Assembly (NCBI RefSeq): GCF_008065095.1
Contig: NZ_CP042911.1
Location: 8,940,001 to 8,972,000, forward strand
Length of the DNA: 32,000 nucleotides
Direction of reading: 5' to 3'
Source of the DNA: Gemmata obscuriglobus
Lineage (GTDB): Bacteria; Planctomycetota; Planctomycetia; Gemmatales; Gemmataceae
This document shows, piece by piece, positions 2,862-27,375 of this stretch. Both the position numbers and the translations under genes were made by a program. The first letter of the stretch is position 1; each line of letters starts with the position of its first letter. The notes beneath the pieces are model-generated. The model did no database searches. It was not told the DNA's origin and was given only the letters and a program-made list of their open reading frames with translations.

Positions 2862-3785
2862 ATGCCGGTTCCCGGTCGGAAGAGCGCCCGGAGGAGGTGG
2901 AGGGTGTGGCTGCTCGCCCTTGGCGCTCTTGGCGCCACATTTTGGCTGCTGGGCTCCTACGCGGCCGCGTACCGGCTCACGCACCGGGCCGGTCCCCAGC
3001 AGCCGGAGCCGGCGCCCACACTCGCGTGGGGCCGCATCGAGCCGTTTCGCCTGGCCACCGCCGACGGCCAGGAACTCGGCGCGTGGTTCGTTGATGGGCG
3101 CCCCGATCGGCCGCTCGTTCTGTTCCTCCACGGTAACGGCGGGCGCCGGTCCGCGTGCCTCAAGGAGGCGGAACTCATCGCGAGTACCGGGAGCGCGGTC
3201 CTGATGATTTCGTTCCGCGCGCACGGGGACTCGACCGGTGACGTGAACGACTTCGGGTACAGCGGACGGCACGACGTGATCGCGGCAGTCGAGTGGCTCC
3301 GGGCGCGACACCCCGGGCGCCCGGTGGTCGTTTGGGGGCAGTCGCTGGGATCGGCGGCGGCGGTATTCGCCGCAGAGGAGTTAGGGAACCGGGTAGCCGG
3401 CTACATCCTGGAATGCCCCTATCAGGACCTCCGGACCGCGACCCGGAACCGGACCCGTATGTACCTGCCGCCCGGGCTCGAGTTCGTCGCGTACACGGGC
3501 TTCTCCGTCGTCGCGCCGATGCTCCTGTCGAACATCAACGACATTTCTCCGCTGACCGCCGCCGCACGAATTCCGGCGTCGGCTCGGGTGCTGGTTCTGG
3601 CCGGAAGCGCCGATCGTCGCGCGCGACCGACCGAGGCGGCAGCCATCGCCGACGCGATCGGGGAACGGGCGGAGTTGGTCGTCATCGAAGGTGGCGATCA
3701 CCTTCACCTCGCCGCGGCTGAACCGGAACGGTACCGGAAGGCGGTGACCGGCTTTTTGGAGCGGTGTGCGCCGGTCGAGAAGTGA
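2862..3785 (+). CDS. membrane-anchored alpha/beta hydrolase
   Basis: ATG at 2862 inside the longer 2448-3785 ORF. N-terminal anchor RRRWRVWLLALGALGATFWLLG, HG oxyanion block LVLFLHGNGG, nucleophile elbow GQSLGS, and a late GGDHLH histidine block. Confidence 0.85.
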   Translation: MPVPGRKSARRRWRVWLLALGALGATFWLLGSYAAAYRLTHRAGPQQPEPAPTLAWGRIEPFRLATADGQELGAWFVDGRPDRPLVLFLHGNGGRRSACLKEAELIASTGSAVLMISFRAHGDSTGDVNDFGYSGRHDVIAAVEWLRARHPGRPVVVWGQSLGSAAAVFAAEELGNRVAGYILECPYQDLRTATRNRTRMYLPPGLEFVAYTGFSVVAPMLLSNINDISPLTAAARIPASARVLVLAGSADRRARPTEAAAIADAIGERAELVVIEGGDHLHLAAAEPERYRKAVTGFLERCAPVEK

Positions 3786-3808
3786 GCCGGGTCCGGTAGA
3801 ATACCGCA

Positions 3809-4927
3809 ATGGAACCGGTGTACCTCGACCACAACGCGACCACGCCGCTCCGGCCCGAAGTGTGGGAGCGGATGCGGCCGCTGATGCTGGAGACGTTCGG
3901 GAACCCGTCGTCGGCGCACGCGTTCGGGCGGAAGGCCCGTCAGGCACTCGAAGACGCGCGCGAGAAGGCGAGCGCGCTCCTGGGGGCACACCCCGACGAG
4001 CTGACGTTCACCAGCGGGGCGACCGAGGCGAACAACCTCGCGATCTTCGGGCTGCGGCCGGCGCGCGCGGTCGCCTCCCCCATCGAACACCCGTGCGTCG
4101 TGGAACCGCTCCGGCGACTGGAAGCGGGCGGCGCGGCGGTCGAGTGGCTCCCGGCGGACGAGCGCGGGGTGATCGCCTGGCGCGAGCCCGCCGCCGACGC
4201 CGATCTGGTCTGCGTGATGCTCGCCAACCACGAGACCGGAGCGGTTCAGCCGGTCCGCGCGATCGCGGCCACGCTCCCGAAAGGCACGAAGCTCCACTGC
4301 GACGCCGTTCAGGCCGTGGGGAAGATCGGGGTCGATTTTCACGAACTCGGCGCGACCACCCTCACTGCCAGCGCGCACAAGTTCGGCGGGCCGAAGGGGG
4401 TCGGGCTGCTGCTCACGAGGCGCGGCACGGACCTGAAGCCGCACACCTTTGGCGGGCACCAGCAGGGCGGCCGGCGCCCGGGTACGGAACCGGTCGCGCT
4501 CGCCGTCGGGATGGCCGCGGCGCTAGAGATCGCGACCCGCGACCTCGCTGCGAACCGGGCGGCGCTCGCCGCGCACCGGGCGCGGCTCTGGGACGCCCTG
4601 CGGCGCGAGTGCGCGCCCGTTGTGCTGAACGGTCCCGAGATCGGGGCCGCGGACGTGGCACCGGCCGCGCTGAACGTGTCGTTCCCGGGGTGCCGGGCGG
4701 ACCTACTCCTCATGTCCCTCGACCTGGCCCGGGTCGCGTGCTCGACCGGGTCCGCGTGTTCGAGCGGGAGCCTGTTACCCAGCCCCGTACTGCGGGCGAT
4801 GGGCGTACCGGACGAGGTACTGAAGTCGGCACTCCGGTTCAGCTTCTCGCCGGCACAAACGAGCGCCGAGATCGACGAAGCGGCAGCTCGCATCGCCCGC
4901 TGCGTGCGGATGACGCGCAACGGGTAA
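3809..4927 (+). CDS. cysteine desulfurase, class V aminotransferase (NifS/IscS family)
   Basis: 372 aa. N-terminus YLDHNATTP, then FTSGATEANN, PLP-lysine motif SAHKFGGPKGVG and the active-site cysteine loop CSTGSACSSGS. Starts 23 nt after the hydrolase stop, so probably co-transcribed. Confidence 0.9.
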   Translation: MEPVYLDHNATTPLRPEVWERMRPLMLETFGNPSSAHAFGRKARQALEDAREKASALLGAHPDELTFTSGATEANNLAIFGLRPARAVASPIEHPCVVEPLRRLEAGGAAVEWLPADERGVIAWREPAADADLVCVMLANHETGAVQPVRAIAATLPKGTKLHCDAVQAVGKIGVDFHELGATTLTASAHKFGGPKGVGLLLTRRGTDLKPHTFGGHQQGGRRPGTEPVALAVGMAAALEIATRDLAANRAALAAHRARLWDALRRECAPVVLNGPEIGAADVAPAALNVSFPGCRADLLLMSLDLARVACSTGSACSSGSLLPSPVLRAMGVPDEVLKSALRFSFSPAQTSAEIDEAAARIARCVRMTRNG

Positions 4928-5058: not shown

Positions 5059-6297
5059 TCAGAGCTGGCGGCCCGCGAGCCGTCCCGTGCTCCACGCGGA
5101 CTGGAAGTTGTACCCGCCGATCCAGCCGTCGAGGTCGAGCAGTTCGCCCGCGAAGTACAAGCCCGCCGCGCGCTTGCTCTGCATCGTGCGCGAATCGACC
5201 TCGTCCAGGCTCACCCCGCCGGCGGTGACCTCGGCCTTCTCGAACCCGAGTGTCCCGCGCAGCGGCATCCGGAGTCGCTTCGTCGCGCCCACCAGGGCGA
5301 GGCGGTCGGCCTTGGCCAGCGCCGCGGCCTTACGGTCCGCCGCCATGCCGCACAGCGCCAGGAGCTGGTCGGCAAGCCGGCGCGGGAGCTTGTCCGCGAG
5401 CACCACCGCGAGTTGCTTCTTGCCCGACGCCAGCGACTCGGCTTGCAAGAAATCGTTGAACGCCTGCTCCGGCTCGGTCGGGAGAAAATCGGCTTCGAGG
5501 GTCAGTGACCGCGGCTCGGCGTGCCCGCTCACCGCCCGGCTCACGTCCAGCGGCGCCGGCCCGGTGAGGCCGAAGTGCGCGAACAGCATCGAGCCCCGGC
5601 GCTGCGTGAGCGCCTTACCCTGCGGGGGAAGCACCTTCAGGTTCACGTCGGGCAGGGTGATGCCGCGCAGCTCGCCGACCCATTCGGGCTGGACCGTGAG
5701 CGGCACGAGGGCCGGGCTCTGGCCCACGATCGTGTGCCCGAACTTGGCCGCCAGGGCGTACCCGTCGCCGGTGGTGCCGCACCCGGGGTACGACCGGCCG
5801 CCGGTGGTGAGCAGCACCCGCTCGGCGGTTAACGTGCGCGCGGGTGTGAGCACCCGGAACCCGCCGTCGGGGCGCGGCTCCACGTCTTTTACCGGCTCGT
5901 TCAGCGCGAGCACGGCCCCGCTCCGCGCGAGCCGCTTCAGGAGCGCGTCGAGGACATCGACCGCACGGTCGCTGACCGGGAACACCTTACCGGTATCCTC
6001 GACTTTTGTTGCCACGCCTTCGCCGTTAAAGAACGCGACTGTTTCGCGCGGCCCGAGCGCCGCGAGCGCGGAGTGGAGGAACTTCCCGTTCGGCCCGAAC
6101 GCCTCAACAATGCCCCGGGCGTCGCAGTCGTGGGTGATGTTGCACCGCGTCCCGCCGCTCATCAGGATTTTGACGCCGGGCTTCTTCCCCTTCTCCAGAA
6201 GCAGAACCCGACGCCCTCGCTCGGCAGCATGAATTGCGGCCATCAACCCCGCTGCACCAGCCCCGGCGATGATTGCGTCGTAGTCGAACGTCGTCAT
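5059..6297 (-). CDS. FAD-dependent oxidoreductase, HI0933/BaiN (aminoacetone-oxidase-like) family
   Basis: 412 aa. N-terminal dinucleotide fold DAIIAGAGAAGLMAAIHAAERGRRVLLLEKGKKPGVKILMSGGTRCN. Family-typical C-terminus EVTAGGVSLDEVDSRTMQSK...GLYFAGELLDLDGWIGGYNFQSAWSTG. Confidence 0.9.
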   Translation of the reverse strand: MTTFDYDAIIAGAGAAGLMAAIHAAERGRRVLLLEKGKKPGVKILMSGGTRCNITHDCDARGIVEAFGPNGKFLHSALAALGPRETVAFFNGEGVATKVEDTGKVFPVSDRAVDVLDALLKRLARSGAVLALNEPVKDVEPRPDGGFRVLTPARTLTAERVLLTTGGRSYPGCGTTGDGYALAAKFGHTIVGQSPALVPLTVQPEWVGELRGITLPDVNLKVLPPQGKALTQRRGSMLFAHFGLTGPAPLDVSRAVSGHAEPRSLTLEADFLPTEPEQAFNDFLQAESLASGKKQLAVVLADKLPRRLADQLLALCGMAADRKAAALAKADRLALVGATKRLRMPLRGTLGFEKAEVTAGGVSLDEVDSRTMQSKRAAGLYFAGELLDLDGWIGGYNFQSAWSTGRLAGRQL

Positions 6298-7575: not shown

Positions 7576-10500
7576 CTACTTCGGGGCACTGCCGCCCACG
7601 AACACGCCGCTCGTGGACGGGGCCTGGCCCGGCGGGATGGCGATGAAGCTGTCGAGCAGCAGCGACGGGTCGAGCCCGCTGAACGCCTTCACGTGCGGGG
7701 CGCCACCGGCCGAACCGGTGAGGATGTCGGCGAGCCGGTCCCCGTTGCGGTCCGCGACCGCGACCCGCACCCCGAACGGGGCCGGCGAGCCGTTCCCGTT
7801 GGTGTACGCGAAGAAGCTCGCCACCTCGGACCCGTCCAGCCGCAGCGCCTTCACGTGCGGGGCGTTGGTGGCCCCGGTCACGATCTCCGCCCGCCCGTCC
7901 CCGTCCAGGTCGCCGGCGGCCACGTAGATCCCACCCAGGTACCCCGCGCCGTATGCGAAGTAGCTGCCGATCTGCTGCCCGCTCGCCGAGAACGCCTTCA
8001 CGTGGCCGGCGAACGTGGCCGACCCGGTGATCACGTCGGCCCGGCCGTCCCCGTCCACGTCGCCCGCGGCCACCGTCACCCCGACCGGGTTACCCCCGCC
8101 GTAGGCGAAGAAGCTCAGGATGGTGCTCGGGTCGGCCGTGCCGTTCGCGGCGATGCCGCCGTTCAGCAGCGACCGGCCGGAGAACGCCTTCACGTGGTCG
8201 TTACTGGCGGCGGTGCCGATCACCACGTCACCGAACCCGTCGCCGTCCACGTCGCCGACCGCGACGTTGACGCCGCCGTTGTACCCGAGGAACGTGAAGA
8301 AGCTCGACAGCAGCCCGAACGACACGCCGTCGTACACCTTCACGTGGCCGCCCGGCGCGCCCGCCCCGGCGGACACCACGATGTCGGCAACCCCGTCGTT
8401 GTTCACGTCGCCGGTCGCCACCTTCACACCGCCGGTGTACTGGTCGAACGGCTGGAACGTGCCGACCAGTGCCCCGGTAGTCGAATCGAACACCTGCACC
8501 GTTGCCACCGGGCCCGCGTCCGACCCGACCACCACCCGGTTCTGCCGGTCCACCACTTGCGTCACGGTCGCCGTGCTCGCACGGTAGAAGCTGTCGCCCG
8601 AGTACGTCACGGTCACCGTCGCCGTACCCGGGGGCAGGGCCGCGGTGCTGAACACCGCCCGGCCCGTGGCGTCCAGGGCCACGACCCCGAGCACCGCTCC
8701 GGTCGCGGAGTTGGTGAACGTGAACGTCCCGGTCGGCGTCTGCAGCCCCGACTGCTCCCCCACGCCGGCCAGGAACGACGTGACGCTCCCAAACACCACC
8801 GGCCCTTGCAGAGCCGTCAGGGTCGTGGTCGAAGGAACGGTAACGGCCTGAACTATTGCGGCGGTAGCAGTCAGGTACGGAGACGCTGTTGGAACCGTCT
8901 GCGGAGTGTACACGGCGGTGATCGTGTGCGACCCGTTCACGAGGGCCGAAGTCGTCAGCACCGCCACCGCCGAATTCCCGGACCCGGCCGTCAGCGTAAC
9001 CGGTGCGCCGATGTTGACCCCGTTGTCCTGGAACTGGACCGTGCCCAGCGGCATCGGGTCGGCGCCAGCGGTCGGGGTGATCGTGAAGGTGAACGTGACC
9101 GCCGAGCCCGGCAGCGACGGGTTGTTGTTTGAAACGAGCGAGGTGGTCGTGGCGTTCGCCACCTGAGTGACGACGACACTGGTGGCCAGGTAGCTAACCT
9201 GGTACACCCGGTTGTTGAGCGTGAACGTGCCCTGGTCGGGCAGACCGTTGAACGCCCCGCTCACCCCGCCCGCCGCGGTCAGGATGGTGAACGAGTCACC
9301 GAGCGTCGGAGTGAAACCGAGGTTGAAGCCCAAAGTAGCGCCGTTGAGGTTCGCAGTCCCGGTAGTCACGTACCGGTCGTACTGCGTGCCCACCGTCGTA
9401 CCGTTCACCTCGACCAAGAAGGTCGAGCCGGCGCTAAACGTCAAGTTGCCGGTGCTGTTCAGAATGCCCGGGCTCGTACCGGGTGCCAGGACGCCACCCG
9501 GGTTGACCGTAACGGCGCCGACCGTACCGGTGCCGCCGAGCGTAGCGCCGCCCTGCACCACGACGCTCGCGCTGCTCTGGTTGGCCGTGACCAGCAACGT
9601 GCCCCCGGCCACGACACTGCTACCGGTGTAAGCAGGACTGTTACCGGTCAGGGTCAACGTACCGGCGCCCACTTTCGTGAGGGTGCCGCTCCCGGTGATC
9701 GGCCCGGCGAACGTGTCGTTGCCGTTACTCACCCCAGTTGCGAGGTTGCCGCCGGCGCCCAGGTCCAGCGTGCCGGCCCCGGTCAGCGACGCGACCTGGT
9801 CGCTGACCCCGGGGTTCACCGTCAGAGTGCCCGTCGTCACGACCACCCCGGTGTCGGGCAGGGCGTTGTTCACCCCCACCACGATCGCCCCGTTGAGCCC
9901 GTTGACCGTGGTCGTGCCCGTGTAGGTGTTGACGGCGTTCAGGACCAGTTGGCCCGAACCGGTCTTGATGACCCCGGCCCCGGCGGCGCCGCTCATCACG
10001 GCGTTCATTTGGAGCGTGGGCTGGGCCGCACCGACGATCGTGGGCGGGGGGGCCAGCGGGGGCAGCGGCGGGTTGCTCACCACCAGGTTGTTGAACGTCG
10101 CCTGGTTGGACTGGTAATTGGAGTCCCCAGAGGTGAACACAGCGGTGATCGTGTGCGTGCCGATCGTCAGCGTGTTCGTGGTCAGCGTCGCCACGCCGTT
10201 GACCAGGATCACCTGGCCGCTGATCGGGGTCGCGCCGTCGAAGAACTGCACCGTCCCGGTCGGCACCGGGTCGTTGGTTCCGGGGGTCAGGCGGTACGTG
10301 AACGTCACGTTGGCGCCGGTGGCGGTCGGGTTGTTGTCGGCGGTGAGTTGGATCGCCGCCGGGGTCGTCACCACCTGGCTGGGCACCAGCGTCGCGACCC
10401 CGCTGGTGTAGTTGGTGTTCCCGTTCTCGGGTATGAACTGGGCCGTGATCGTGTGCGTGCCGGGTGTAAAGCTCACGTCCCGGGTTGCGCTACCGGCGTT

Positions 10501-13500
10501 GAGCGGCACAGTGCCACCGATTGGAACGCCGTTGTCGAAGAACTGGACGCTCCCGGCCGGCACCGGGTCGCCCGCCTTACCGCTTGCCACGAACGTCAAC
10601 GTGACGAGGCTTCCGGGAGGGGCCGGGTTGAGGTTCGATGTGAGCAGCATGATGGGGGGGACACCCACCACCTGACTTGGCGCAAGCGGAACATCAGTCA
10701 CCGTCGGGGCGTAAGTCGGGGTGAGCCCACCGCTCCCAAAGTACCTGACAGTAATCGTGTGCGTACCGGGTGTCAGGTTCGGTGTCGTCACCGACGCCGA
10801 ACCGCCGACGACGTTCTGAATAGTGCCGATCTGGACGCCGTTATCATAGAAGCTGACGGTCCCGGTCAGCGCCGGCGCGCCGGGGAGGGTAATAAAGTTG
10901 GCCGTGAACGTCACGTTCTCGGTCACGCCCGCCGGGTTGTTGCTCGACGAAACCTGGATAATATACGGATTTACAACAACCTGAGCCGGCGTCAGGGTGT
11001 AAGTATTGGCCGTGTAGTTGCCGCCGAAATACTGGGCGCGAATCGTGTGCGTGCCCGGGGTCAGGCCACTCGTCGTCACCGACGCGACCCCGTTGTTGCC
11101 CACGGTGTTCAGCGCGACCGGCGCGCCGATGGGGGTGGTGCCGTCGAAGAACTGCACCGTCCCGTTCGGAATCACGCCGCCCGACGGCGGGATCGCGGTG
11201 AACGTGAACGTCACGTTCCCGTTGCTCGTCACCGAGTTGGAACTCGAGGAGACGATCCCCGCAATGGTGCCCGCAGCAGGCGTTGGAGCGGCAATGATGG
11301 TCTGATTTGCCGTCAGCCGCCCCGTCCCGCCCGCATAGAAGTTGTCTCCGGAGTAGACGGCGGTAATGGTGCGCGAGCCGACTCCGAGCGTGGTCGGCGA
11401 GATCGTCGCCTGCCCGTTGACGAGTGCCACCGGGGCGCCGATCCCGACGCCGTTGTCGAAGAACTGCACGGTCCCAGTCGGCACCGGGTCGCCCGCCCGC
11501 CCCGTGGCGATGAATGTGAGCGGCACAGCGCTGGCGGCAATGGCCTGGTTCGCGCCAGAAATCACCGTGAGGAGGGGGGTGCCGCCCACGACCAGGGTCG
11601 GGGCGAGCGGCACGACCCCGGGCAGGTACACGTTCGCATCGCCGGTGTACGCCGCGGTGATGGTGTGCGTGCCGACCGTCAGCGCGCTGGTGGTCAGCGT
11701 CGCCACCCCGTTGGCGTCGAGCGCGACCGGTGCCCCGATCGCGACGCCGTTGTCGAAGAACTGAACGCTCCCGCCCGGCGTCGGGGCGGACGAGTCCCCG
11801 CTGGCGATGAACGTGAACGTCACGGGGCTGCCCGGCGCGACCGGGTTGCCGCTCGACCGGAGCACGAGCTGGGCCGGCGTACCCACCTGCTGGTTCGCGA
11901 GGGTCACCTGAACCGGGGAGTAGGTGCCGTCGCCGCTGTACGCGGCCGTGATCTGGTGCGACCCGACCGGCAGGGTCGTCATGTACGTCGCCGTTCCGAG
12001 GGCCGACAGCGCCACCGGCGCGCCGATGGGGTTCGGCCCGTCGAAGAACTGCACGGTCCCGGTCGGCACCGCTTCACCCGCCCGGGGCGGCAGGTTGAAC
12101 GTGAACGTGATGACCTGCCCGGCCAGCGCCGGCGAGGCGCTCGACGTGAGCACGGCCCGCTCGCTCGGGTTCACGATCACCAGGCTCTGATCCAGGGGCA
12201 CGGTCGAGGGGGCGTAGTTCGCGTCGCCGGTGTACACGGCGGTGATGGTGTGCGCGCCGACCGTCAACACGTTCGCCTGCACCGTGAAGGTCGCCGTGCC
12301 GGCGAGCACGGTCGCCGTGCCGAGGAAAATGTTGCCGTCGAAGAACGACACCGTCCCGGTCGGCACGGGGTCCCCGGGGTTCCCGGTCACCGTGAAGGTG
12401 AGCGTCACGGTCCCGCCGGCCTGGGCCGGGTTCCGGTTCGCCGAGAACGTGGTGGCCGCCCCCGGGAGGAAGGTGAAGGTCCGCGTGGTGGACCCGAGGA
12501 ACACGTTCCCGGTGATCCTCGACATCTCGGACGAGCCGAAGGTCGCTACGTTGGTCGTGAGGATCAGCGAGCCCGCACCCGTTGTCACCTCGCCGCCCTG
12601 GAGCGCCAGCGGCCCGACCGTTTCGTTGGAGCCGTTCAGGTCGAACAGCCCGGACGAGTTGACCGTAATGGCCCTGGTGTCGGGGATCTGGTTCGGGGCG
12701 TCCAGGCGCAACACGTCCGCGTTGTTGCCGCCCTGCCCGTCGCCGACGATGATCGCCCCGGCGACGGCGTTGACCGTGGTGCCGACGGGGGCGATCTTCT
12801 TGAGCGACACCGTACCCTGTTCGATCTGGAGCGTATCGACGAAGGTGTTGGAGGCGGTGCCGGTGAGCTTCAGCTCACCGGCGCCGAGCTTCCGGATCTT
12901 GGCGTCACCGCTGACGACGTTGCTGAACTCGAGCGACCCGGTCGCGCCGGTGACGTTGATGATGGCCTCGTCGCCGGGGCCGATCTGGTTGTTCCCGATC
13001 ACGCTCACGGTCCCGGTCCACACGTTGGTGCCGGAACTCACCTGGAGCGCCGCGGAGGAGCCGGCCGCGCTGGTGAGGGTGAGCGCCTCGTTCTGGACGG
13101 TGATGCCGCTCGCGAGCACCAGGGCGGCGCCGGAGGCGACCGTGGTGCCGGCGCCGCCGGTGCCGCCGAACCCGCCGCCCCTCGTGACCGTCGTGACGCC
13201 GTTGCGCAGCGTCAGCGCCCCGAGGAAGGTGTTGGTGTTGGTGATGCTGACCGTGCCGGTTCCGACCTTCGTCAGGTTCTGCCCGGCCGCGCCGCCGATG
13301 ACCCCGCTGATGGTCAGGTCGGTGTTCGGGTCGTTCGAGATCGTCGTTGTCGAGGCGATCGTCACGGTCCCGGCCACATCGATCACGGTGTGGACCGCCG
13401 GGGTGGCCGCGTTGTCGGTGATCGACAGCGCGCCCCCGGTGTACCCCGGCCCGTTGAGGGTGAGGTTCTTCTGCAGCGTGTACTGGCCCTGAAGCTCGAG

Positions 13501-15252
13501 GGTGCCGAACGACTGGTTCGTGATGTCGGAGTTCACGGTGATCGCGCCACCACGCGGGGCGGTGGTGCGGGTCGCGGGGCCGAGCACGTTCGGCCCCTGC
13601 ATGACGAGGACGCCGTTGTTGACGAACGTGTTGCCGCTGAACTCGAGGTTCGGGTTCGGGAAGATCACCGTGCCCTTGCCCCATTTCGACAGGCTGGCGT
13701 TCGCGACGACCGGCCGGTTGAGCGCCCGGTACGCCTGGAGGGAGAGGGCCTCGGTCGGCGTCAGGAGGGCCGTGGCCGCCGCGCTCGCCGGCAGGTTGGC
13801 GAGGTGACCGCTGACCAACAAGGCCCCACCGTCAAACACCCCGATGGTGGCGTTGCCCTCCAAGAAGATCGCGCTCCGCCACTCCGCGGGCGTCGTGCGG
13901 TTGGCCCCTTGCGCGAACAGGGCGCCGAGCGGCTGATTGTTGTTGCCCGTGTCCGCGAGCCCGGTGCCGTTCAGGATGAGCAGTTCGTCGTCGATCACGC
14001 GGGCGCCCGACACCGGGTTGCTCAACAGCGCGAGCGTCGCGCCGCTGCTGACCACCGTGTAGGAGCCCGGCGACAGGGCGTCGTCGTTGCTGATCGCGAG
14101 GGACCCGGCGTTAACGAACGTGACACCGCCGTAGGTGTTCGCCGTCGTCAGCGTGATCGTGCCTATAGTCGTCAGGTTTCCAGACCCAGAGACCACCCCG
14201 CTGATCGTCAGCCGGCCGCCGACCGTCGCCGACGGGTTCAGGGTCACCCCGTTCAAAACCGTACCGCCGGTGAGCGGGTCGACGCCGTCGCCGCCGAAAA
14301 GAGCGCCCTGGCCCCCGACGCCGGTCCCCTGAATCGTGAGCGACTCGCGGAAGTTCGACACGTTCACCCTGAGCGTCGCCCCGTTCAGCACGTTCGTGCC
14401 GACGGCGGTCAGGCCGAGGGCGTTGTTGCTGTTGGCGAGGAGGACGCCTTGTTGCACCTCGACGAGGCCGGCGAACGTGTTGTTCCCGCCGGCGGCCCCC
14501 GTTACCGGGTTCCTCCCGCCGAGCGAGATCGTTCCGTCACCGAGTTTGATAAAGCCCACCTGTGACGGGTTCGCGGCGGCCGGTGAGGTGCCGATGTTGC
14601 CGATGATGTTCAGCGTCCCGGCCGCGTTGGTGGCCGTGAAGTTCTGCGCCTCGTTGCTCAGTTGCATCCGGAAGTAGAGCGTACTACTGCCGGCACCCAA
14701 GTACGTGATCCCGTCCGTGACGGTCAGCGTCCCGAGGTTCGTGGGAGCGTTGCCCTGGGGGAAAAGTGGCTCATCCACGACCTGATCGACGATGAGCCAG
14801 CCCGCGTCCTTGATGGTAATGGAGCGGACCGTTTGGGTGAGGTCCATCACCGAGTTGGGAGTGGGTACAAACCTGTCAGTCGTATAATATTTGAAATAGT
14901 TCGCACTGCGCGGCAGAGTACCGCCATAGAACGCCGCGGTCTCGAACACCACGTCGTCCCCGCTCGTGGGGACGCCGAGGTCCCAGTTGAGCGGGTTCGA
15001 CCAGCTAAGATCACCGCTCTCGCCGACGTCGTTGGGGTTGACGGGCGCACCGTTTGCGTCCACAGGGCCGACGTTGGTGGTCCCGCTCCCGTTGAAGTCG
15101 AAGTCCGGCACCGCGCCGCCGGTCCACGTGATGATGGCCGGCATGGCGCGGTTTTCTAGCGCCTCAAGCGTGAGCGCGTTTTGGAACGGGGCGACCGTGC
15201 CGTGGCCCGTGAACTTATTGCGGAACAGTTGGCGGAGCCAAGAAGGCAACAT
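7576..15252 (-). CDS. giant (2558-aa) secreted/cell-surface repeat protein: autotransporter-associated beta-strand (PATR) repeats, Ig-like repeats and C-terminal FG-GAP repeats
   Basis: A single uninterrupted ORF. The N-terminus has LTLEALENRAMPA. PATR-type units include NLTKVGTGTVSITNTNTF, IRKLGAGELKLTGTASNTF and GTLTKVGAGTLTLTGNSPAYTG. There are about 10 Ig-like units of the form VTFTF...PTGTVQFFDG...GTHTITAVYSGD, and 5 clear GDVDGDGxADxxxG FG-GAP calcium-loop motifs. Confidence 0.93.
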   Translation of the reverse strand: MLPSWLRQLFRNKFTGHGTVAPFQNALTLEALENRAMPAIITWTGGAVPDFDFNGSGTTNVGPVDANGAPVNPNDVGESGDLSWSNPLNWDLGVPTSGDDVVFETAAFYGGTLPRSANYFKYYTTDRFVPTPNSVMDLTQTVRSITIKDAGWLIVDQVVDEPLFPQGNAPTNLGTLTVTDGITYLGAGSSTLYFRMQLSNEAQNFTATNAAGTLNIIGNIGTSPAAANPSQVGFIKLGDGTISLGGRNPVTGAAGGNNTFAGLVEVQQGVLLANSNNALGLTAVGTNVLNGATLRVNVSNFRESLTIQGTGVGGQGALFGGDGVDPLTGGTVLNGVTLNPSATVGGRLTISGVVSGSGNLTTIGTITLTTANTYGGVTFVNAGSLAISNDDALSPGSYTVVSSGATLALLSNPVSGARVIDDELLILNGTGLADTGNNNQPLGALFAQGANRTTPAEWRSAIFLEGNATIGVFDGGALLVSGHLANLPASAAATALLTPTEALSLQAYRALNRPVVANASLSKWGKGTVIFPNPNLEFSGNTFVNNGVLVMQGPNVLGPATRTTAPRGGAITVNSDITNQSFGTLELQGQYTLQKNLTLNGPGYTGGALSITDNAATPAVHTVIDVAGTVTIASTTTISNDPNTDLTISGVIGGAAGQNLTKVGTGTVSITNTNTFLGALTLRNGVTTVTRGGGFGGTGGAGTTVASGAALVLASGITVQNEALTLTSAAGSSAALQVSSGTNVWTGTVSVIGNNQIGPGDEAIINVTGATGSLEFSNVVSGDAKIRKLGAGELKLTGTASNTFVDTLQIEQGTVSLKKIAPVGTTVNAVAGAIIVGDGQGGNNADVLRLDAPNQIPDTRAITVNSSGLFDLNGSNETVGPLALQGGEVTTGAGSLILTTNVATFGSSEMSRITGNVFLGSTTRTFTFLPGAATTFSANRNPAQAGGTVTLTFTVTGNPGDPVPTGTVSFFDGNIFLGTATVLAGTATFTVQANVLTVGAHTITAVYTGDANYAPSTVPLDQSLVIVNPSERAVLTSSASPALAGQVITFTFNLPPRAGEAVPTGTVQFFDGPNPIGAPVALSALGTATYMTTLPVGSHQITAAYSGDGTYSPVQVTLANQQVGTPAQLVLRSSGNPVAPGSPVTFTFIASGDSSAPTPGGSVQFFDNGVAIGAPVALDANGVATLTTSALTVGTHTITAAYTGDANVYLPGVVPLAPTLVVGGTPLLTVISGANQAIAASAVPLTFIATGRAGDPVPTGTVQFFDNGVGIGAPVALVNGQATISPTTLGVGSRTITAVYSGDNFYAGGTGRLTANQTIIAAPTPAAGTIAGIVSSSSNSVTSNGNVTFTFTAIPPSGGVIPNGTVQFFDGTTPIGAPVALNTVGNNGVASVTTSGLTPGTHTIRAQYFGGNYTANTYTLTPAQVVVNPYIIQVSSSNNPAGVTENVTFTANFITLPGAPALTGTVSFYDNGVQIGTIQNVVGGSASVTTPNLTPGTHTITVRYFGSGGLTPTYAPTVTDVPLAPSQVVGVPPIMLLTSNLNPAPPGSLVTLTFVASGKAGDPVPAGSVQFFDNGVPIGGTVPLNAGSATRDVSFTPGTHTITAQFIPENGNTNYTSGVATLVPSQVVTTPAAIQLTADNNPTATGANVTFTYRLTPGTNDPVPTGTVQFFDGATPISGQVILVNGVATLTTNTLTIGTHTITAVFTSGDSNYQSNQATFNNLVVSNPPLPPLAPPPTIVGAAQPTLQMNAVMSGAAGAGVIKTGSGQLVLNAVNTYTGTTTVNGLNGAIVVGVNNALPDTGVVVTTGTLTVNPGVSDQVASLTGAGTLDLGAGGNLATGVSNGNDTFAGPITGSGTLTKVGAGTLTLTGNSPAYTGSSVVAGGTLLVTANQSSASVVVQGGATLGGTGTVGAVTVNPGGVLAPGTSPGILNSTGNLTFSAGSTFLVEVNGTTVGTQYDRYVTTGTANLNGATLGFNLGFTPTLGDSFTILTAAGGVSGAFNGLPDQGTFTLNNRVYQVSYLATSVVVTQVANATTTSLVSNNNPSLPGSAVTFTFTITPTAGADPMPLGTVQFQDNGVNIGAPVTLTAGSGNSAVAVLTTSALVNGSHTITAVYTPQTVPTASPYLTATAAIVQAVTVPSTTTLTALQGPVVFGSVTSFLAGVGEQSGLQTPTGTFTFTNSATGAVLGVVALDATGRAVFSTAALPPGTATVTVTYSGDSFYRASTATVTQVVDRQNRVVVGSDAGPVATVQVFDSTTGALVGTFQPFDQYTGGVKVATGDVNNDGVADIVVSAGAGAPGGHVKVYDGVSFGLLSSFFTFLGYNGGVNVAVGDVDGDGFGDVVIGTAASNDHVKAFSGRSLLNGGIAANGTADPSTILSFFAYGGGNPVGVTVAAGDVDGDGRADVITGSATFAGHVKAFSASGQQIGSYFAYGAGYLGGIYVAAGDLDGDGRAEIVTGATNAPHVKALRLDGSEVASFFAYTNGNGSPAPFGVRVAVADRNGDRLADILTGSAGGAPHVKAFSGLDPSLLLDSFIAIPPGQAPSTSGVFVGGSAPK
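7600..8560 (-). repeat. FG-GAP (integrin-alpha-like beta-propeller) repeat region at the C-terminus of the giant gene
   Basis: Repeated blades of the form ...HVKAFSG...FFAYGxG..GGV.VAAGDVDGDGRADVITG. Five D-x-D/N-x-D-G loops were read: GDVNNDGVADIVV, GDVDGDGFGDVVI, GDVDGDGRADVIT, GDLDGDGRAEIVT and ADRNGDRLADILT. Confidence 0.75.
8575..9165 (-). repeat. two further Ig-like repeats inside the giant gene
   Basis: Units AVTFTFTITPTAGADPMPLGTVQFQDNG...GSHTITAVYTP and QTPTGTFTFTNSATGAVLG...ATVTVTYSGDSFY. Boundaries are approximate. Confidence 0.6.
10085..12460 (-). repeat. eight tandem Ig-like domain repeats (~300 nt period) inside the giant gene
   Basis: The nucleotide block gtcgaagaactgcaccgtcccggtcggcaccgggtc (encoding PTGTVQFFD) recurs near 10238, 10534, 11144, 11455, 11752, 12040 and 12338. 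Boundaries are approximate. Confidence 0.75.
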
Positions 15253-21114: not shown

Positions 21115-22125
21115 TCACGCCCCCCGCTCGCCCTTGTGCCAGGCCAGCGCGCGCCCCATGCCCTCGTCGAACAGAACGCGCGGGGTGTAGCCCAGCTTCG
21201 TGCGCGCCTTCGCGATGGAAAAGTCGAGGTTCAGCCCGGCGAATTTGAGCTGCGCCTGCGTGATCCGCGGCGGGTGCGGCTTGTTCAGTTTGCGGAACGT
21301 GCTCTCGCGCCAGTTCGCCATCGCCCGCGCCAGCCACACCGGCACGGGGGGGAAGCCCCGCGGCCGCTTCAGCCCCAACCCGTCGGCCACCGTCTCGAAG
21401 AACCGGCGCTTGCTCACGAACTCGCCGTCGGTGATGTTGAACACCTCGCCCACGACGCCTTCCGCCGGCGCCCCGAGCGCGAGCAGCACCGCGTCCGCGA
21501 TGTTGCCCACATAGGTCGTGTTGAGCGCGTACCGGCCGCGGGCGATGTAGATCACGCTCCGCTCGCGGAGCCGCTCTGCCAGGCGCGGCAAAACCGTCCG
21601 GTCGCGCGGGCCGTACACGAACCCGGGGCGCAGAATTACGACCGGGACCTTCTGCTTGCGGTGGTACTGGAGCGCGATCCGCTCCGCCTCCACCTTCGAC
21701 TGCGTGTAGCCGTCGATGTGGTCGTTCGGGAGCGGCTCGGTCTCATCAGTGCCGTAATGGTGCCGGGCCTCGTACACGCCCAGCGAGCTAATGTGGACGA
21801 ACCGGTGCAGCGGTTGCCCGAGGGTCGCATCGAACAGGTTGCGCAGCCCCTCGACGTTCACCGCGCGGTAACCGTCCACGTGGCCCCAGTCGCCGACCTT
21901 CGCTGCGCTGTTCACCACGGCGTCGCACCCCGCGGCGGCCCGCTTGAGGGCGTCGGCGTCGGTCACGTCGCCCGGAACGAGGGTGACCCCGAGGGCGGTC
22001 AGGAACGCGGTGTCGCTACCCGACCGGGCGAGCGCGCGGACCGTGTGCCCGGCGCGAACGAGCGCCTCGGCGACGTGCGAGCCGACGAACCCGGTGGCCC
22101 CGGTGAGTAGAATCGTGTGTGGCAT
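21115..22125 (-). CDS. NAD-dependent epimerase/dehydratase family protein (extended SDR)
   Basis: Starts at the ATG at 22125 (MPHTILLTGATGFVGSHV Rossmann motif). Catalytic YTQSK (YxxxK). The ORF-track start at 22152 is a TTG nine codons upstream. Confidence 0.88.
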   Translation of the reverse strand: MPHTILLTGATGFVGSHVAEALVRAGHTVRALARSGSDTAFLTALGVTLVPGDVTDADALKRAAAGCDAVVNSAAKVGDWGHVDGYRAVNVEGLRNLFDATLGQPLHRFVHISSLGVYEARHHYGTDETEPLPNDHIDGYTQSKVEAERIALQYHRKQKVPVVILRPGFVYGPRDRTVLPRLAERLRERSVIYIARGRYALNTTYVGNIADAVLLALGAPAEGVVGEVFNITDGEFVSKRRFFETVADGLGLKRPRGFPPVPVWLARAMANWRESTFRKLNKPHPPRITQAQLKFAGLNLDFSIAKARTKLGYTPRVLFDEGMGRALAWHKGERGA

Positions 22126-22180
22126 CGCGCTGTTGTCGGGAACAGCGTCCAAACGGCAAGACTCCTCACAAGGGCCGACC

Positions 22181-23488
22181 GTGGCGACACCCCTCCGCGT
22201 GCTCGCAAGCGTTCTGGTGGCGCTCGCTCTGCCAGCCCTGGCGCGTGCCGGGCTGCACTACTCGGGCGAGCAGTTCGCGGAGCTGCCGAGTCGCCCGTCC
22301 GGGTTCCTGACGGACCACCGCGCGCTCCGCGCCGCAGGCTACGAGCGCCCGGACGGCCTCCCGTCGCCCCTGCGCGACGATTACCGCGCCGCCGCCGACC
22401 GCCTGGAAAAGCTGAACAAGATCCGCGCGCTGACCGCCGACGAAATCGCCGACCTCGGCGCCGTCCACCTCCGGCTCGGTAAGCCCGACCAGGCGCTCAA
22501 CGTTCTCGCTCCCGCGGTGCGCAAGTTTCCCGACCATTTCCGCATCGCCGCGAACCTCGGCACCGCGTTCCAACTGACCGGCAATCTAGAACGCGCCGCC
22601 GCGCAACTCGAAGAGGCCGTGAGGCTTGCTCCTGCGAAGCTCAAGCCGTTCGAACACGCGCATCTCAAACTCGTTACGCTCCGGCGGAAGGAAGGAAAAG
22701 CCGCCGCCAGCCCCAGCGCCGTCGATGACCTGTTCGGGGTCAAGTACATCGGACCGTCGGGAGCCCCGGAGCCGGGCGTGCTGGCCGAAGCCGAGCGCAA
22801 GAAGCTCCCCGCCGACGCTCTGGTCACCGTCCAGCAACTGGCGCTGTGGCTCCCGGCCGACGGCCGGTTGCTCTGGCAGATCGGCGAAGTCTGTAACGCG
22901 CTCGGCGACCCACGCGCCGCGGCCGCGGCCCTCGACGGGTGCGTAACCGAGTTCGCGCTCGCGGCCCCGGACCTCCGCAAGCGCCGACTGCTGTACCGCG
23001 CCGCGGCCGACGAACTGGCGAAAAAGCCCGGCCACGACCCGCACCGCAGCCCCATCAAGGTGAAGTCAACGCGCCCACTCATCAAGGCGTTCGATGAGGC
23101 CCTGCTGTCCGCGATCGACGATGCGGGAGTGAACGTGCTCCCGTGGCCCGTTCTGGGAGCGACCACGATTACCGCGAAGGGGAAACCGTCGTTCGCGAAA
23201 CACCTCGAAAAGCTCGACGGCAAAACGGTCACGCTCACCGGCTTCATGCAGCCCGTCAAAGACGAGCTTGCCGTGACGGGCTTTCTGCTCCTCGAATACC
23301 CGGTGGGCTGCTGGTTCTGCGAAGTGCCCGACCCGACCGCGATGCTCAACGTGGAACTCAAGGCCGGTAAAACCGCGGAGCTGCGCAAGGGGCTCATCAA
23401 GGTAACGGGAACGCTGGTACTGAACCGAACGGACCCGGAGAGTTACCTGTTCTCACTGAAGGACGCCCGCGTCGGCGAAGTGGACTGA
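22181..23488 (+). CDS. secreted TPR-like plus DUF3299-like domain protein
   Basis: GTG at 22181 gives the signal peptide VATPLRVLASVLVALALPALARAG; sequence upstream in the long ORF is antisense to the epimerase gene. The C-terminus LDGKTVTLTGFMQPV...FLLLEYPVGCWFCEVPDPTAMLNVEL...VTGTLVL resembles DUF3299. Confidence 0.75.
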   Translation: MATPLRVLASVLVALALPALARAGLHYSGEQFAELPSRPSGFLTDHRALRAAGYERPDGLPSPLRDDYRAAADRLEKLNKIRALTADEIADLGAVHLRLGKPDQALNVLAPAVRKFPDHFRIAANLGTAFQLTGNLERAAAQLEEAVRLAPAKLKPFEHAHLKLVTLRRKEGKAAASPSAVDDLFGVKYIGPSGAPEPGVLAEAERKKLPADALVTVQQLALWLPADGRLLWQIGEVCNALGDPRAAAAALDGCVTEFALAAPDLRKRRLLYRAAADELAKKPGHDPHRSPIKVKSTRPLIKAFDEALLSAIDDAGVNVLPWPVLGATTITAKGKPSFAKHLEKLDGKTVTLTGFMQPVKDELAVTGFLLLEYPVGCWFCEVPDPTAMLNVELKAGKTAELRKGLIKVTGTLVLNRTDPESYLFSLKDARVGEVD

Positions 23489-23510: not shown

Positions 23511-23858
23511 TCAATCGACGATTTTCACCGGTAGTTTGCGCTGCCCGGCCATCCACGGTTGGGCCGGCATTTCCTTGAGCCAGTCACTCAGGCTGGGAAT
23601 GAAGCCGAGATCTTCGAGAACGTGCTGTTCGGCGATGTCGCGCACGAACACCTCCCGGCCGTCCGAATTGGTCACGAACCGGCCAAAGATCTCTTCGATG
23701 ATGTAGATCCCGAACGCGGAGTGAAACACGCACCGGTGCGTCACCTCGGCGTGGGCGCTCTTGGTGCTGTCCATGCGCTCGTGGATGTCGATGTAGTCCT
23801 CGGGCTTACCGCCCCAGCGCTTCGCGGACGATTGCGCGTGAACCCAGGCCTTCGACAC
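23511..23858 (-). CDS. conserved hypothetical small protein (third gene of a three-gene operon)
   Basis: GTG at 23858 with GGAGGA about 7 nt upstream, starting 2 nt after the upstream gene's TGA. Sequence SKAWVHAQSSAKRWGGKPEDYIDIHERMDSTKSAHAEVTHRCVFHSAFGIYIIEEIFGRFVTNSDGREVFVRDIAEQHVLEDLGFIPSLSDWL resembles a widespread uncharacterised small-protein family; I cannot name the family with certainty. Confidence 0.7.
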   Translation of the reverse strand: MSKAWVHAQSSAKRWGGKPEDYIDIHERMDSTKSAHAEVTHRCVFHSAFGIYIIEEIFGRFVTNSDGREVFVRDIAEQHVLEDLGFIPSLSDWLKEMPAQPWMAGQRKLPVKIVD

Positions 23859-23860
23859 GG

Positions 23861-24289
23861 TCAATCCTCCAACGTGGTTTCGCGCACCTCGTACCATTCG
23901 AACTCGTCGAACGCAGCCCACACCGCGTCCCGCTGCCCCTCGGTCAACTCGCCCACCACCCGCGCCCACCATTGGTCCCACTGCACGTACCCCACCTTCG
24001 GCGCCTTGGGTTCAGGAACGCCGAACGTCTTGAGGAGCTTGAAAAGCTCGTCCTCGTCGGACATCAGGAAGCCCGGGTCGGTGTCGTGCGCAAACGGGTT
24101 CGTGACCGCACGCAGCTCGCGGTTGAGGCGCTCCGCGTGCTCCTGCGCCGCCTTCTTCGACGCGAATACAAGGTCCGGTTCGGTGTAACTCGTGTTCACC
24201 GCCGACACCTCGCGCACCACGATGTACGCCTTGAGCGGTTTCGCCTTTCGGGGTCGCTTGGCCTTCTTCGCGGCCGGCTTGCGGCTCAT
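23861..24289 (-). CDS. hypothetical protein with a lysine-rich basic N-terminal tail and an NPF/WW/AVW module
   Basis: 142 aa. The ATG overlaps the upstream stop as ATGA (24286-24289). N-terminus MSRKPAAKKAKRPRKAKPLK. The remainder is paralogous to part of the upstream gene product. Confidence 0.75.
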   Translation of the reverse strand: MSRKPAAKKAKRPRKAKPLKAYIVVREVSAVNTSYTEPDLVFASKKAAQEHAERLNRELRAVTNPFAHDTDPGFLMSDEDELFKLLKTFGVPEPKAPKVGYVQWDQWWARVVGELTEGQRDAVWAAFDEFEWYEVRETTLED

Positions 24290-25053
24290 TCCAGCCCCTC
24301 CAGCGGGACCTCAATGACCTCGTAGAACGGGGTGTCCTTCACCAGCCGAAAAACGCCTTCGCCCTTATTCAGCTTCTGGCTGCCGAGCAGTCCGCGCTGC
24401 CGCCGGACGCGGTCCCGCATGTCGAACATGGCGTACTCGTCCTCGGTCTCGTAATCCCCCGCGAACTCGTCGGACTCGTCAACGATGTCAGCCCACAGAT
24501 CGCGAGCGATGTCGTTACTGTCCGCGCACTCCTTCTCGGCGCGCTCGCGGGTGCGGAACACCTGCATCACCTCGCTCTGGTCCGGGTGTGCGTCGTAGGT
24601 TTCGTCGTTGTACTGCCAGTTGATGTGGACCACCGCGTAGCCGACCGGGCGTACCGGTTCCTCGACGACCGCGTAAAACCGCACCTTGTCGAGCGCTTCC
24701 CATACCGCGTGCCGCTTCTCCGCGGACAGCTTTGCGTGCCCCTTCTTCCACCACCCGGCCCAGTCGGTGGCACCGCCCTTCTTCGGATTCGGCGGATCGA
24801 CGCCGTGATCCATGAGCCAGTCGCGGAGCCGCGGCTCGTCGAGGTGCGTCCAGAAGTACACGCCGGCACCGCAGGCGAACGGGTTCACCACCTCGCGGCA
24901 CGCGTTCTCGCGCGTAACGCGCTCGGCGTCCGCGGCATCGAACGTGTCGAACGACGCCACGTTCCGCGCCCCCGGTTGCCGCTCCATTGTGCCGTCGTAG
25001 GACTCGGCCCAGTTGAGCCGTTTGAGTACGAACCGCGTTGCGGGCTTCGCCAT
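24286..25053 (-). CDS. hypothetical protein with an NPF/WW/AVW module and an acidic C-terminal region
   Basis: ATG at 25053 with GGAGG 6 nt upstream (MAKPATRFVLKRLNW...). Contains an internal repeat of a NW.Y.D...F.T...AE unit and the acidic stretch DIVDESDEFAGDYETEDEY. Confidence 0.75.
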   Translation of the reverse strand: MAKPATRFVLKRLNWAESYDGTMERQPGARNVASFDTFDAADAERVTRENACREVVNPFACGAGVYFWTHLDEPRLRDWLMDHGVDPPNPKKGGATDWAGWWKKGHAKLSAEKRHAVWEALDKVRFYAVVEEPVRPVGYAVVHINWQYNDETYDAHPDQSEVMQVFRTRERAEKECADSNDIARDLWADIVDESDEFAGDYETEDEYAMFDMRDRVRRQRGLLGSQKLNKGEGVFRLVKDTPFYEVIEVPLEGLE

Positions 25054-25117
25054 GACTGCCTCCGGAGAAACCGAAAGCAGCATAACGCGTGCGGGAAATG
25101 TGGTCGAGGTGCGCAAC

Positions 25118-25178
25118 AAAAAAGCACCGGCGGGCCGGGCACCTCGCAGTTGATCGCGAGGTACCCGGCCCGCCGGTG
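25118..25178 (-). terminator. strong rho-independent terminator
   Basis: On the minus strand: CACCGGCGGGCCGGGTACCTCGC, an 8-nt loop, then GCGAGGTGCCCGGCCCGCCGGTG. This is a 23-bp stem with one non-Watson-Crick position, followed by CTTTTTTGTTG. Confidence 0.85.
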
Positions 25179-25200: not shown

Positions 25201-25311
25201 TTAGCGCACGCCGCCCTTGTACTTCTTGCTGCTGCGGAGCTTATGCTTGCGGGCCTTGCGGCGCTTCTTCGAGGCGTTCCGCTGGCTCTTCGGCGCGTGT
25301 TGAATGCCCAT
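25201..25311 (-). CDS. 36-aa highly basic small protein (too short for the ORF track)
   Basis: ATG at 25311 with GAGGGA 7 nt upstream. Sequence MGIQHAPKSQRNASKKRRKARKHKLRSSKKYKGGVR, TAA at 25201-25203. Of the 35 codons after the ATG, 32 end in G/C, matching genome codon bias. It sits between the rimO stop (25362) and the strong terminator. Confidence 0.6.
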   Translation of the reverse strand: MGIQHAPKSQRNASKKRRKARKHKLRSSKKYKGGVR

Positions 25312-26842: not shown

Positions 26843-27103
26843 TCAGCGCCGGCGGCTCGGCCCCGCGTACAGCACCTCGACCCGAAGGTTGTTATCGTCA
26901 ACGCGATAGTAGACGCCGAGGACATCCTCGTACCACAGCCGGTACCCTTGATCGCGGGACTCGCCCATGTCGCGCGGGGTACGCCGTAGGACCCAGTCGA
27001 TGCGAGCTGCGGCCGCACGTACGGCCGCCGGGTCATCGGCGGCCGCTTCAATGCGGGACACCTCAAGCGTGGCAGTCAACCGCCACGTGACAGTGAACGT
27101 CAT
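26843..27103 (-). CDS. ParE/RelE-superfamily toxin-like protein
   Basis: 86 aa from the ATG at 27103 (MTFTVTWRL...). The tail GYRLWYEDVLGVYYRVDDNNLRVEVLYAGPSRRR fits the ParE/RelE pattern. The start overlaps the upstream gene's stop as ATGA. The rest of the 240-aa ORF in the track is non-coding. Confidence 0.6.
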   Translation of the reverse strand: MTFTVTWRLTATLEVSRIEAAADDPAAVRAAAARIDWVLRRTPRDMGESRDQGYRLWYEDVLGVYYRVDDNNLRVEVLYAGPSRRR

Positions 27104-27348
27104 TGCCAGCCCAGCCGTTGTTTCATTTCTTCGAAGGTGAATCCCGGCTCGGTAAGCCGGCGGGCGGTCTCCTCGGGAGTGATCCCCCGGACCCAGTCGG
27201 GCTCGATCGCGCCCGCGGGGTCGGTCGCCGCGAGGAGCACGCCCGCCGGGTCGCGGAACTCGATGCGCTGGGTGCGGGCGGCTTCGACGAACAGCTTTTC
27301 GGCGTCGGCCCAGCTCACGGCCCGACCGCCGATGTGCAGCGTAACCAT
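27100..27348 (-). CDS. putative cognate antitoxin (family not recognised)
   Basis: 82 aa from the ATG at 27348 with GGAGG 6 nt upstream. It has a 4-nt ATGA overlap with the ParE-like gene. Sequence MVTLHIGGRAVSWADAEKLF...DWVRGITPEETARRLTEPGFTFEEMKQRLGWQ. Confidence 0.55.
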   Translation of the reverse strand: MVTLHIGGRAVSWADAEKLFVEAARTQRIEFRDPAGVLLAATDPAGAIEPDWVRGITPEETARRLTEPGFTFEEMKQRLGWQ

Positions 27349-27375
27349 CACACGCCTCCGATGAGATCAGTCTGT

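Follow-up and report, generated by a model that had tools for sequence, protein, structure and literature searches.

A translationally coupled three-gene operon of Gemmata obscuriglobus places a DUF6915 gene behind two paralogues built from an uncatalogued module

We analysed a stretch of 32,000 nucleotides (nt) from the Gemmata obscuriglobus chromosome (NZ_CP042911.1, positions 8,940,001 to 8,972,000; hereafter the window, within which coordinates are given unless they carry a locus number), and focused on three consecutive minus-strand genes, here called g1, g2 and g3. The first, g1 (24286–25053), starts with ATG and encodes an acidic protein of 255 amino acids (isoelectric point, pI, 5.0) in which the open reading frame (ORF) and its sequence contain two tandem hairpin-helix modules; g2 (23861–24289) encodes 142 amino acids, with a lysine/alanine/proline-rich tail followed by one module; and g3 (23511–23858) starts with GTG and encodes a 115-amino-acid member of the DUF6915 family. 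The TGA of g1 and the ATG of g2 overlap as ATGA, and g3 starts 2 nt past the TGA of g2. A GGAGG could be read on the minus strand before each start codon, at 25059–25063 for g1, at 24297–24301 for g2 (within the end of g1) and at 23866–23870 for g3 (within the end of g2), in each case 5–7 nt ahead of the start. The preceding transcription unit ends in an intrinsic terminator (25118–25175, minus strand) that sets the 5′ boundary of the operon and whose stem, running from 25175 to 25128, has 20 pairs, 17 of them G-C, and is followed by a T-run; a sigma-70 scan did not find a promoter between this terminator and g1. On the other side lies a convergent gene (21944–23488) encoding TPR repeats and DUF3299. 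Together, g1, g2 and g3 make up a single, translationally coupled operon, and the layout described in a first-pass annotation of this DNA, including its coordinates, ATGA overlap, 2-nt gap, ribosome-binding sites, strong terminator and convergent neighbour, was reproduced from the ORFs and the sequence.

Residues 43–131 of g1 align with residues 52–137 of g2 at 38% identity (BLASTP, E 2e-12), a profile of the g2 family matches the N-terminal half of g1 (hhalign, E 3e-20), and the two halves of g1 match each other (hhalign, probability 95%, E 3.6e-8). As judged from these alignments, g1 is a tandem of two modules, g2 is one module with a basic tail, and the two genes are paralogues. Both the module common to g1 and g2 and the internal repeat of g1, which had been proposed in the first-pass annotation, are confirmed by these matches. 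The N-terminal module of g1 (residues 1–134; 24652–25053, minus strand) is of the NPF / LRDW / W..WW / VWEALD type that is also found in g2, and the C-terminal module (residues 135–255; 24289–24651, minus strand) is of a WxYNDE hairpin type. The AlphaFold2 model of g1, based on a 41-sequence alignment, has a predicted local distance difference test score (pLDDT) of 87.9 and a predicted template-modelling score (pTM) of 0.76, and contains the repeated unit twice, each time with a long β-hairpin that leads into a helix, followed by a variable helical insert and a strand that closes the unit (copy 1: strands 6–17 and 23–35, helix 38–53 and strand 127–133; copy 2: strands 137–149 and 152–166, helix 169–191 and strand 244–250). 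The invariant residues of g1 and g2 are mostly tryptophan, phenylalanine, proline and glycine, together with a few acidic residues (in the N-terminal module of g1: W15, P58, F59, D78, D82, W98, W101 and W118), and conservation of this kind looks structural rather than catalytic.

The two paralogues differ in their charge. The net charge of g1 is −14 and comes wholly from its C-terminal module, which holds a poorly conserved acidic stretch at about residues 190–210; the first 20 residues of g2, the lysine/alanine/proline-rich tail (24230–24289, minus strand), carry +10 and the remainder of the protein −11. These values agree with the acidic g1 segment and the lysine-rich g2 start noted at first reading, and the complementary charge of the two proteins is a fact of composition alone. 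Among orthologues, the g2 tail and the g1 acidic stretch are kept in character, with variation in tail length; several orthologues, such as the one at locus L003, have a short tail or none.

The proposal that the shared module corresponds to no annotated domain was borne out in Pfam, NCBIfam, PADLOC and the PDB. Pfam gave no match for g1, and its best match for g2 (DUF7839, E 0.15) was below cut-off; neither protein matched NCBIfam or PADLOC, and neither single-sequence nor profile searches of the PDB matched the module. In PHROGs, module matches were weak, the best having E values of 0.0066 and 0.044, both to families annotated as function unknown. BFVD contained one match to g1 at E<=0.001, an unnamed viral protein of 141 amino acids (E 9e-5, target template-modelling (TM) score 0.60). 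A Foldseek fold search of g1 against the PDB returned Csf5 as its best candidate, which we rejected (E 0.09, TM score 0.10). Since the module has a confident model and no relative found in the PDB, it marks a gap among described protein families.

The module is uncatalogued, yet it is neither rare nor local. We found 111 close homologues of g1, and a module profile searched against 1.84 billion representative proteins retrieved 938 clusters at E<=1e-3, including 431 at E<=1e-10. Many of these clusters consist of proteins of 350–550 amino acids with two or three matched stretches, and ten sampled distant or long members contained no informative fusions or known domains. The long N-terminal extension of one homologue, P0331, resembles an over-called ORF in high-GC DNA.

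The third gene belongs to a catalogued family. We judged the membership of g3 in PF21866 (DUF6915) by the Pfam gathering cut-off of 27 bits and full-length coverage of the model, and g3 scores 150.2 bits (E 2.1e-44) over model positions 2–102 of 102; it also matches phrog_8143 with an E value of 2.5e-45. The early suggestion that g3 falls in a widespread but uncharacterised family of small proteins was therefore right: DUF6915 has no assigned function and no solved structure, and neither it nor DUF6878, a partner family described below, is mentioned by any paper in the searched literature. In an alignment of 35 sequences drawn from phages, plasmids and many phyla, the invariant positions of the family are H7, S11, G16, G17, D21, H26, D30, K33, H41, R42 and H46, and further G59, H79, D83, G85 and P88. 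The family-invariant residues from H7 to D83 are found in g3 itself, which carries five invariant histidines and three invariant aspartates and has the invariant lysine and arginine in common with phage, plasmid and bacterial members. This residue pattern, taken from sequence, suggests a metal or ligand site in g3. The protein is near neutral (pI 6.05).

Across Gemmataceae, the three genes recur in the same order, with the 4-nt junction of g1 and g2 and a 0–4-nt junction before g3 conserved between genera. A scan of GTDB with the DUF6915 alignment placed g1/g2-type genes beside g3 in 16 of 21 Gemmataceae species loci, and an independent scan with g1 found g3 at 14 of the approximately 17 metagenome loci that had enough flank. 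The first gene of the trio is 54% identical to g1 in P0066 and 42% in P0095. The trio lies between RimO and TPR genes in one neighbourhood (L003) and beside LplA and ABC-transporter genes in another (L004); synteny of the RimO–TPR location is preserved from genus to genus, an indication of vertical inheritance. In one genome (L001) the order is g1-g2-g1′-g2′-g3, with two g1-g2 pairs per single g3. The nearest genome, that of Gemmata algarum JC673, encodes products that are 99% (g1), 97% (g2) and 97% (g3) identical to those of the window. When 19 loci are compared with the window, the median identity is 92% for g3, 60% for g1 and 44% for g2, and g3 is under strong purifying selection.

Two observations on individual Gemmataceae-type loci are worth recording. 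At L023 (3154–4008) and L106 (about 5157–6082), two Fimbriiglobus-like loci, an extra ORF of about 284 amino acids separates g3 from the last module gene, and contains a GVIDGDGYLGY stretch with, by eye only, the look of a LAGLIDADG-type homing endonuclease. A contig labelled ‘uncultured Alcaligenaceae’ (L025, CAYUHJ010000016.1) carries a Gemmataceae-type module-module-DUF6915 operon whose g3 is 82% identical to that of the window, and is probably mis-binned or mislabelled.

DUF6915 itself extends far beyond this family of bacteria, into at least 523 GTDB species genomes, 127 phage records and at least 580 IMG/VR stretches. At most loci sampled (70 of 80 from GTDB and 73 of 80 from IMG/VR) it has a same-strand partner, usually a few nt upstream, that is drawn from one of three families. 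Among the GTDB loci, the partner was the module in 29 cases, DUF6878 in 35 and a third family in 6, with none in 10; these GTDB tallies are partly circular, because the hidden Markov models (HMMs) for the single-module type, DUF6878 and the third family drew their training sequences from some of the loci counted. The independent IMG/VR tallies were 4, 29 and 42, respectively, with none in 7; two contigs that carry the module together with the third family are counted under each. Sampled partners of all three families are strongly acidic (pI 4.2–4.6). Neither DUF6878 nor the third family has detectable homology to the module (hhalign E 0.1–0.5; 0.1–0.3 for DUF6878), so that the three families are not connected by sequence homology, and a candidate ‘W-E-x-N-D’ motif common to the partner families, in which only seven columns aligned (E 0.013), was not counted.

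Module-family partners occur in Planctomycetaceae (Schlesneria, Planctomicrobium), Armatimonas, Rubripirellula, the Ralstonia jumbo phage RsoM2USA and four IMG/VR contigs; the last were detected by profile HMMs only, and tblastn confirmed no relatives of g1 in IMG/VR. Single-module partners of the Planctomycetaceae overlap the DUF6915 gene by 4 nt and match the C-terminal module of g1 (hhalign, E 3e-11). Some of them (L035 3570–4004, L038 3507–4004, L042 3573–4004 and similar) begin with a twin-arginine-like sequence, SRRGFFAHL..AGAGAVA, a putative signal peptide or an over-extended ORF call that is absent in others (L050). DUF6878 (PF21798) partners are found in Alphaproteobacteria, Acidobacteriota, Deinococcota and others. 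The pairs of alphaproteobacterial conjugative plasmids and chromosomes share with the Gemmata operon a small acidic protein (pI about 4.2–4.4) encoded upstream on the same strand, at a gap of about 1–12 nt; they differ in having two genes placed among plasmid transfer and establishment genes, whereas the Gemmata operon has three and is chromosomal. The third family, which has no Pfam model, is the commonest partner on viral contigs (42 of the 80 IMG/VR loci) and is often encoded downstream of DUF6915; its members come from Bacillus and Bacillus phages, from Hydrogenophaga and from many viral contigs, and those sampled have 136–170 amino acids and the motif W.QYTPYFNDGD / W.F..E.DDEGG (for example L043 3474–3986, L070 3578–3988, L009 2574–2987 and L006 4345–4839).

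The last of these examples lies in RsoM2USA (L006, MG752970.1), where genes 138–141 occupy 3162–4839: a DUF6915 paralogue (3162–3566), a module protein (3576–4001), a DUF6915 gene (3998–4342) and the third-family partner (4345–4839). The module protein, RsoM2USA_140, has a single module of the g1 C-terminal type (hhalign to the C-terminal module of g1, E 4.5e-8), and its gene overlaps the DUF6915 gene RsoM2USA_139 by 4 nt; unlike the Gemmata operon, the cluster has two DUF6915 copies and a third-family partner. A single phage thus carries both partner types and two DUF6915 copies in four consecutive genes, all annotated as hypothetical.

Rather than an oddity of Planctomycetes, the Gemmata operon is the form taken in Gemmataceae by a widespread gene pairing, that of DUF6915 and an acidic partner. 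It constitutes a new three-gene chromosomal variant of this pairing, in which the family of g3 is catalogued and the module of g1 and g2 is not; no paper in the searched literature mentions the pairing. The explanation that we favour, tentatively and as a little less than an even chance, is that g3 forms the active core of a coupled operon and that g1 and g2 are its binding partners. In its favour are the gene junctions retained in orthologous loci, the co-occurrence seen in the scans with DUF6915 and with g1 and in more than one neighbourhood, the varying number of g1-g2 pairs, the single-module partners whose genes overlap DUF6915, the alternation of acidic partner families, the unequal evolutionary rates, the invariant residues of DUF6915 and the mobile-element context described below. 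In this explanation the DUF6915 protein, small and mostly helical, would be the constrained, active component, and we infer that g1 and g2 may bind it in a stoichiometric ratio fixed through translational coupling, acting as its regulators, inhibitors or targeting adaptors. The tail of g2 could tether such an assembly to nucleic acid. The partner would have been expanded in Gemmataceae, to three modules per g3 and to six in L001. Metal binding by g3 is likewise an inference, and so is any biochemical activity.

The H1-like lysine/alanine/proline-rich tail of g2 also invites a reading in which there is no assembly, g1 and g2 being structural proteins associated with nucleic acid or the nucleoid, and g3 an unrelated small enzyme that happens to be on the same transcript. 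Multi-module proteins of 350–550 amino acids exist, and g1/g2 pairs and g3 can each be found in the absence of the other, all of which this reading would accommodate. It does not sit well with the orthologues in which the basic tail is short or absent, nor with the adjacency of module and DUF6915 in Gemmataceae, Planctomycetaceae, Armatimonas, the Ralstonia jumbo phage and four IMG/VR contigs; if the genes had no functional connection, it would be difficult to account for an adjacency that recurs across such evolutionary distances. We consider independent roles for these proteins quite unlikely.

Several results weigh against g3 as the core of an assembly with g1 and g2, in addition to the partial circularity of the GTDB counts. 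In 5 of the 21 Gemmataceae loci, g3 stands alone among unrelated neighbours, at 77–91% identity, and lacks any g1/g2-type gene in the surrounding 4 kb, a distance that leaves room for such a gene elsewhere in those genomes. DUF6915 is missing from the surroundings of three distant g1/g2 pairs. Together, the solitary g3 genes and the pairs lacking g3 imply that the partnership is not obligatory. The co-occurrence of the trio, which the first-pass annotation had named as a check, therefore stands as a constant gene order across Gemmataceae in at least two neighbourhoods, and falls short of a fixed association. Streptomyces phages have, upstream of DUF6915, a gene for a small basic protein instead of one for an acidic partner. 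As to structure, the AlphaFold2 model of g3 is helical with one hairpin and has a moderate pLDDT of 72, and Foldseek found no relative of it among PDB folds (best E 2.2). Single-sequence and profile searches of the PDB gave g3 only one, sub-threshold profile match, to hemerythrin (1hrb), which weakened from an E value of 0.078 to 0.6 when the 35-sequence profile was used, and was dropped as evidence. Finally, the plasmid homologues described below resemble leading-region genes by gene content alone (5 of 5 loci). One of the g1/g2 pairs without DUF6915 (L117 4471–5583) lies directly downstream of an AAA_25 gene encoding a RepA-like ATPase, and this neighbour hints that some module pairs are on mobile DNA.

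The asymmetry of evolutionary rates, with the effector g3 far more conserved than its partners, is also what a toxin-antitoxin-like module might display, and the locus shares further traits with type II systems: small overlapping genes in the order partner then effector, with 4-nt overlaps, and a less conserved upstream partner. One effector family, spread over plasmids, phages and chromosomes, goes with partner families that change, plasmids and phages often carry the pairing, and some Planctomycetaceae assemblies contain two copies (L034/L038, L046/L050). DUF6915 would in that case be a toxic enzyme and g1/g2, or DUF6878 elsewhere, its cognate antidotes, serving DNA stabilisation or abortive responses. 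We regard this as unlikely. Pfam, NCBIfam and PADLOC reveal no helix-turn-helix, ribbon-helix-helix, AbrB-type, toxin or antitoxin domain in g1, g2 or g3, so the trio differs from type II systems in lacking a known toxin or antitoxin and a DNA-binding antitoxin domain. The solitary g3 genes, without g1/g2 at hand, also speak against a toxin-antitoxin role, as do the syntenic, apparently vertically inherited position between RimO and TPR, the near-neutral pI of g3 and the frequent placement of the third partner family downstream of DUF6915.

On conjugative plasmids and large phages, the pairing sits among genes characteristic of DNA entry and establishment. We counted 224 plasmids with DUF6915, of which 156 are conjugative (123) or mobilizable (33). 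In each of five plasmids examined, from Sulfitobacter, Sphingobium, Komagataeibacter, Celeribacter and Roseovarius, the DUF6878-DUF6915 pair lies within a co-oriented array whose genes vary by plasmid and include ssb, ardC, radC, a large parB-like gene, a strawberry-notch helicase, DUF2493, DUF736 and toxin-antitoxin genes; a relaxase gene is part of the array on one of the five. Co-oriented genes for single-stranded DNA-binding proteins, anti-restriction proteins, methylases, toxin-antitoxin systems and uncharacterised proteins are typical of plasmid leading regions (Samuel et al., PMC11541004), and it is in such gene content that the plasmid homologues of g3 resemble leading-region genes. 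Phages carry DUF6915 in accessory regions: those of Streptomyces have it near transfer RNA (tRNA) genes and a Ro-like protein, and Bacillus phage Izhevsk has it near genes for an RNA ligase, phosphoribosyl pyrophosphate (PRPP) synthetase and nicotinate phosphoribosyltransferase.

These settings raise the prospect that the pairing serves anti-defence or establishment on behalf of a mobile element, and that the Gemmata copy sits in a cryptic integrated element and counters host immunity, for example as an acidic DNA mimic together with an enzyme. The company of the DUF6878-DUF6915 pair on conjugative plasmids, the abundance of DUF6915 in phage records and IMG/VR stretches, and the Izhevsk neighbourhood are in line with this, and the partners are, we presume, as acidic as known DNA mimics. 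The window itself has neither a prophage nor a defence-island context, the two kinds of neighbourhood named as examples at first reading. The neighbours of the operon are of housekeeping type: genes for a RimO/MiaB-type radical-SAM enzyme, an epimerase, the TPR and DUF3299 protein, a PfkB kinase and a MutS-like protein. Integrase, phage and transfer genes are absent from the window, and Rfam matched neither a tRNA nor any other RNA family in it; PADLOC-DB defence models matched none of g1, g2 and g3 at E<=1. The window copy therefore lies off mobile elements and, in contrast to its plasmid homologues, does not resemble a leading region. The GC content of the trio (0.60–0.66) is only slightly below that of its flanks (0.65–0.72), synteny is retained across genera, the strong purifying selection on g3 is unlike that of typical arms-race genes, and neither DUF6915 nor DUF6878 appears in the supplementary tables of the leading-region study (PMC11541004). 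Given its neighbours, the window copy is unlikely to have an active anti-defence role on behalf of a mobile element, and we give this explanation a low probability.

The operon in Gemmataceae is chromosomal, syntenic and vertically inherited, and this suggests a cellular rather than a mobile-element role there. A broader proposal, of which we are doubtful, is that DUF6915 and its interchangeable acidic partner make up an unrecognised, widespread two-component system among the entry and establishment genes of conjugative plasmids and large phages. A small metal-dependent effector would act together with an acidic regulator or mimic specific to it, perhaps through a new anti-defence or nucleic-acid-processing mechanism, and Gemmataceae would have domesticated the pair as a core chromosomal operon, expanding the partner into a multi-module family with a new fold.

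The pairing links DUF6915, DUF6878, a module of about 940 clusters and a third family in one recurrent arrangement that extends over many phyla, 224 plasmids and hundreds of viral contigs. If it acts at DNA entry, it would be a candidate for a new establishment or anti-defence function, and should the Gemmata operon prove to be a domesticated copy, it could serve as a chromosomal model for the biochemistry of the pairing. The operon connects plasmid, phage and chromosomal biology, and it is conserved and experimentally tractable.

Three further features of the window were noted. Between the RimO-like gene and the terminator, a minus-strand ORF at 25201–25311 encodes an extremely basic peptide of 36 amino acids, MGIQHAPKSQRNASKKRRKARKHKLRSSKKYKGGVR, which has no match in NCBIfam and which we take to resemble small ribosomal proteins of the bS22 type; a 36-amino-acid gene is found at the same position in L001 and L003. 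Upstream of the RimO-like gene, two overlapping minus-strand ORFs at 26843–27351, of 83 and about 95 amino acids, look by eye like a toxin-antitoxin-type pair and have no Pfam or NCBIfam match. By far the longest reading frame in the window is a single minus-strand ORF of 2558 amino acids at 7576–15252.

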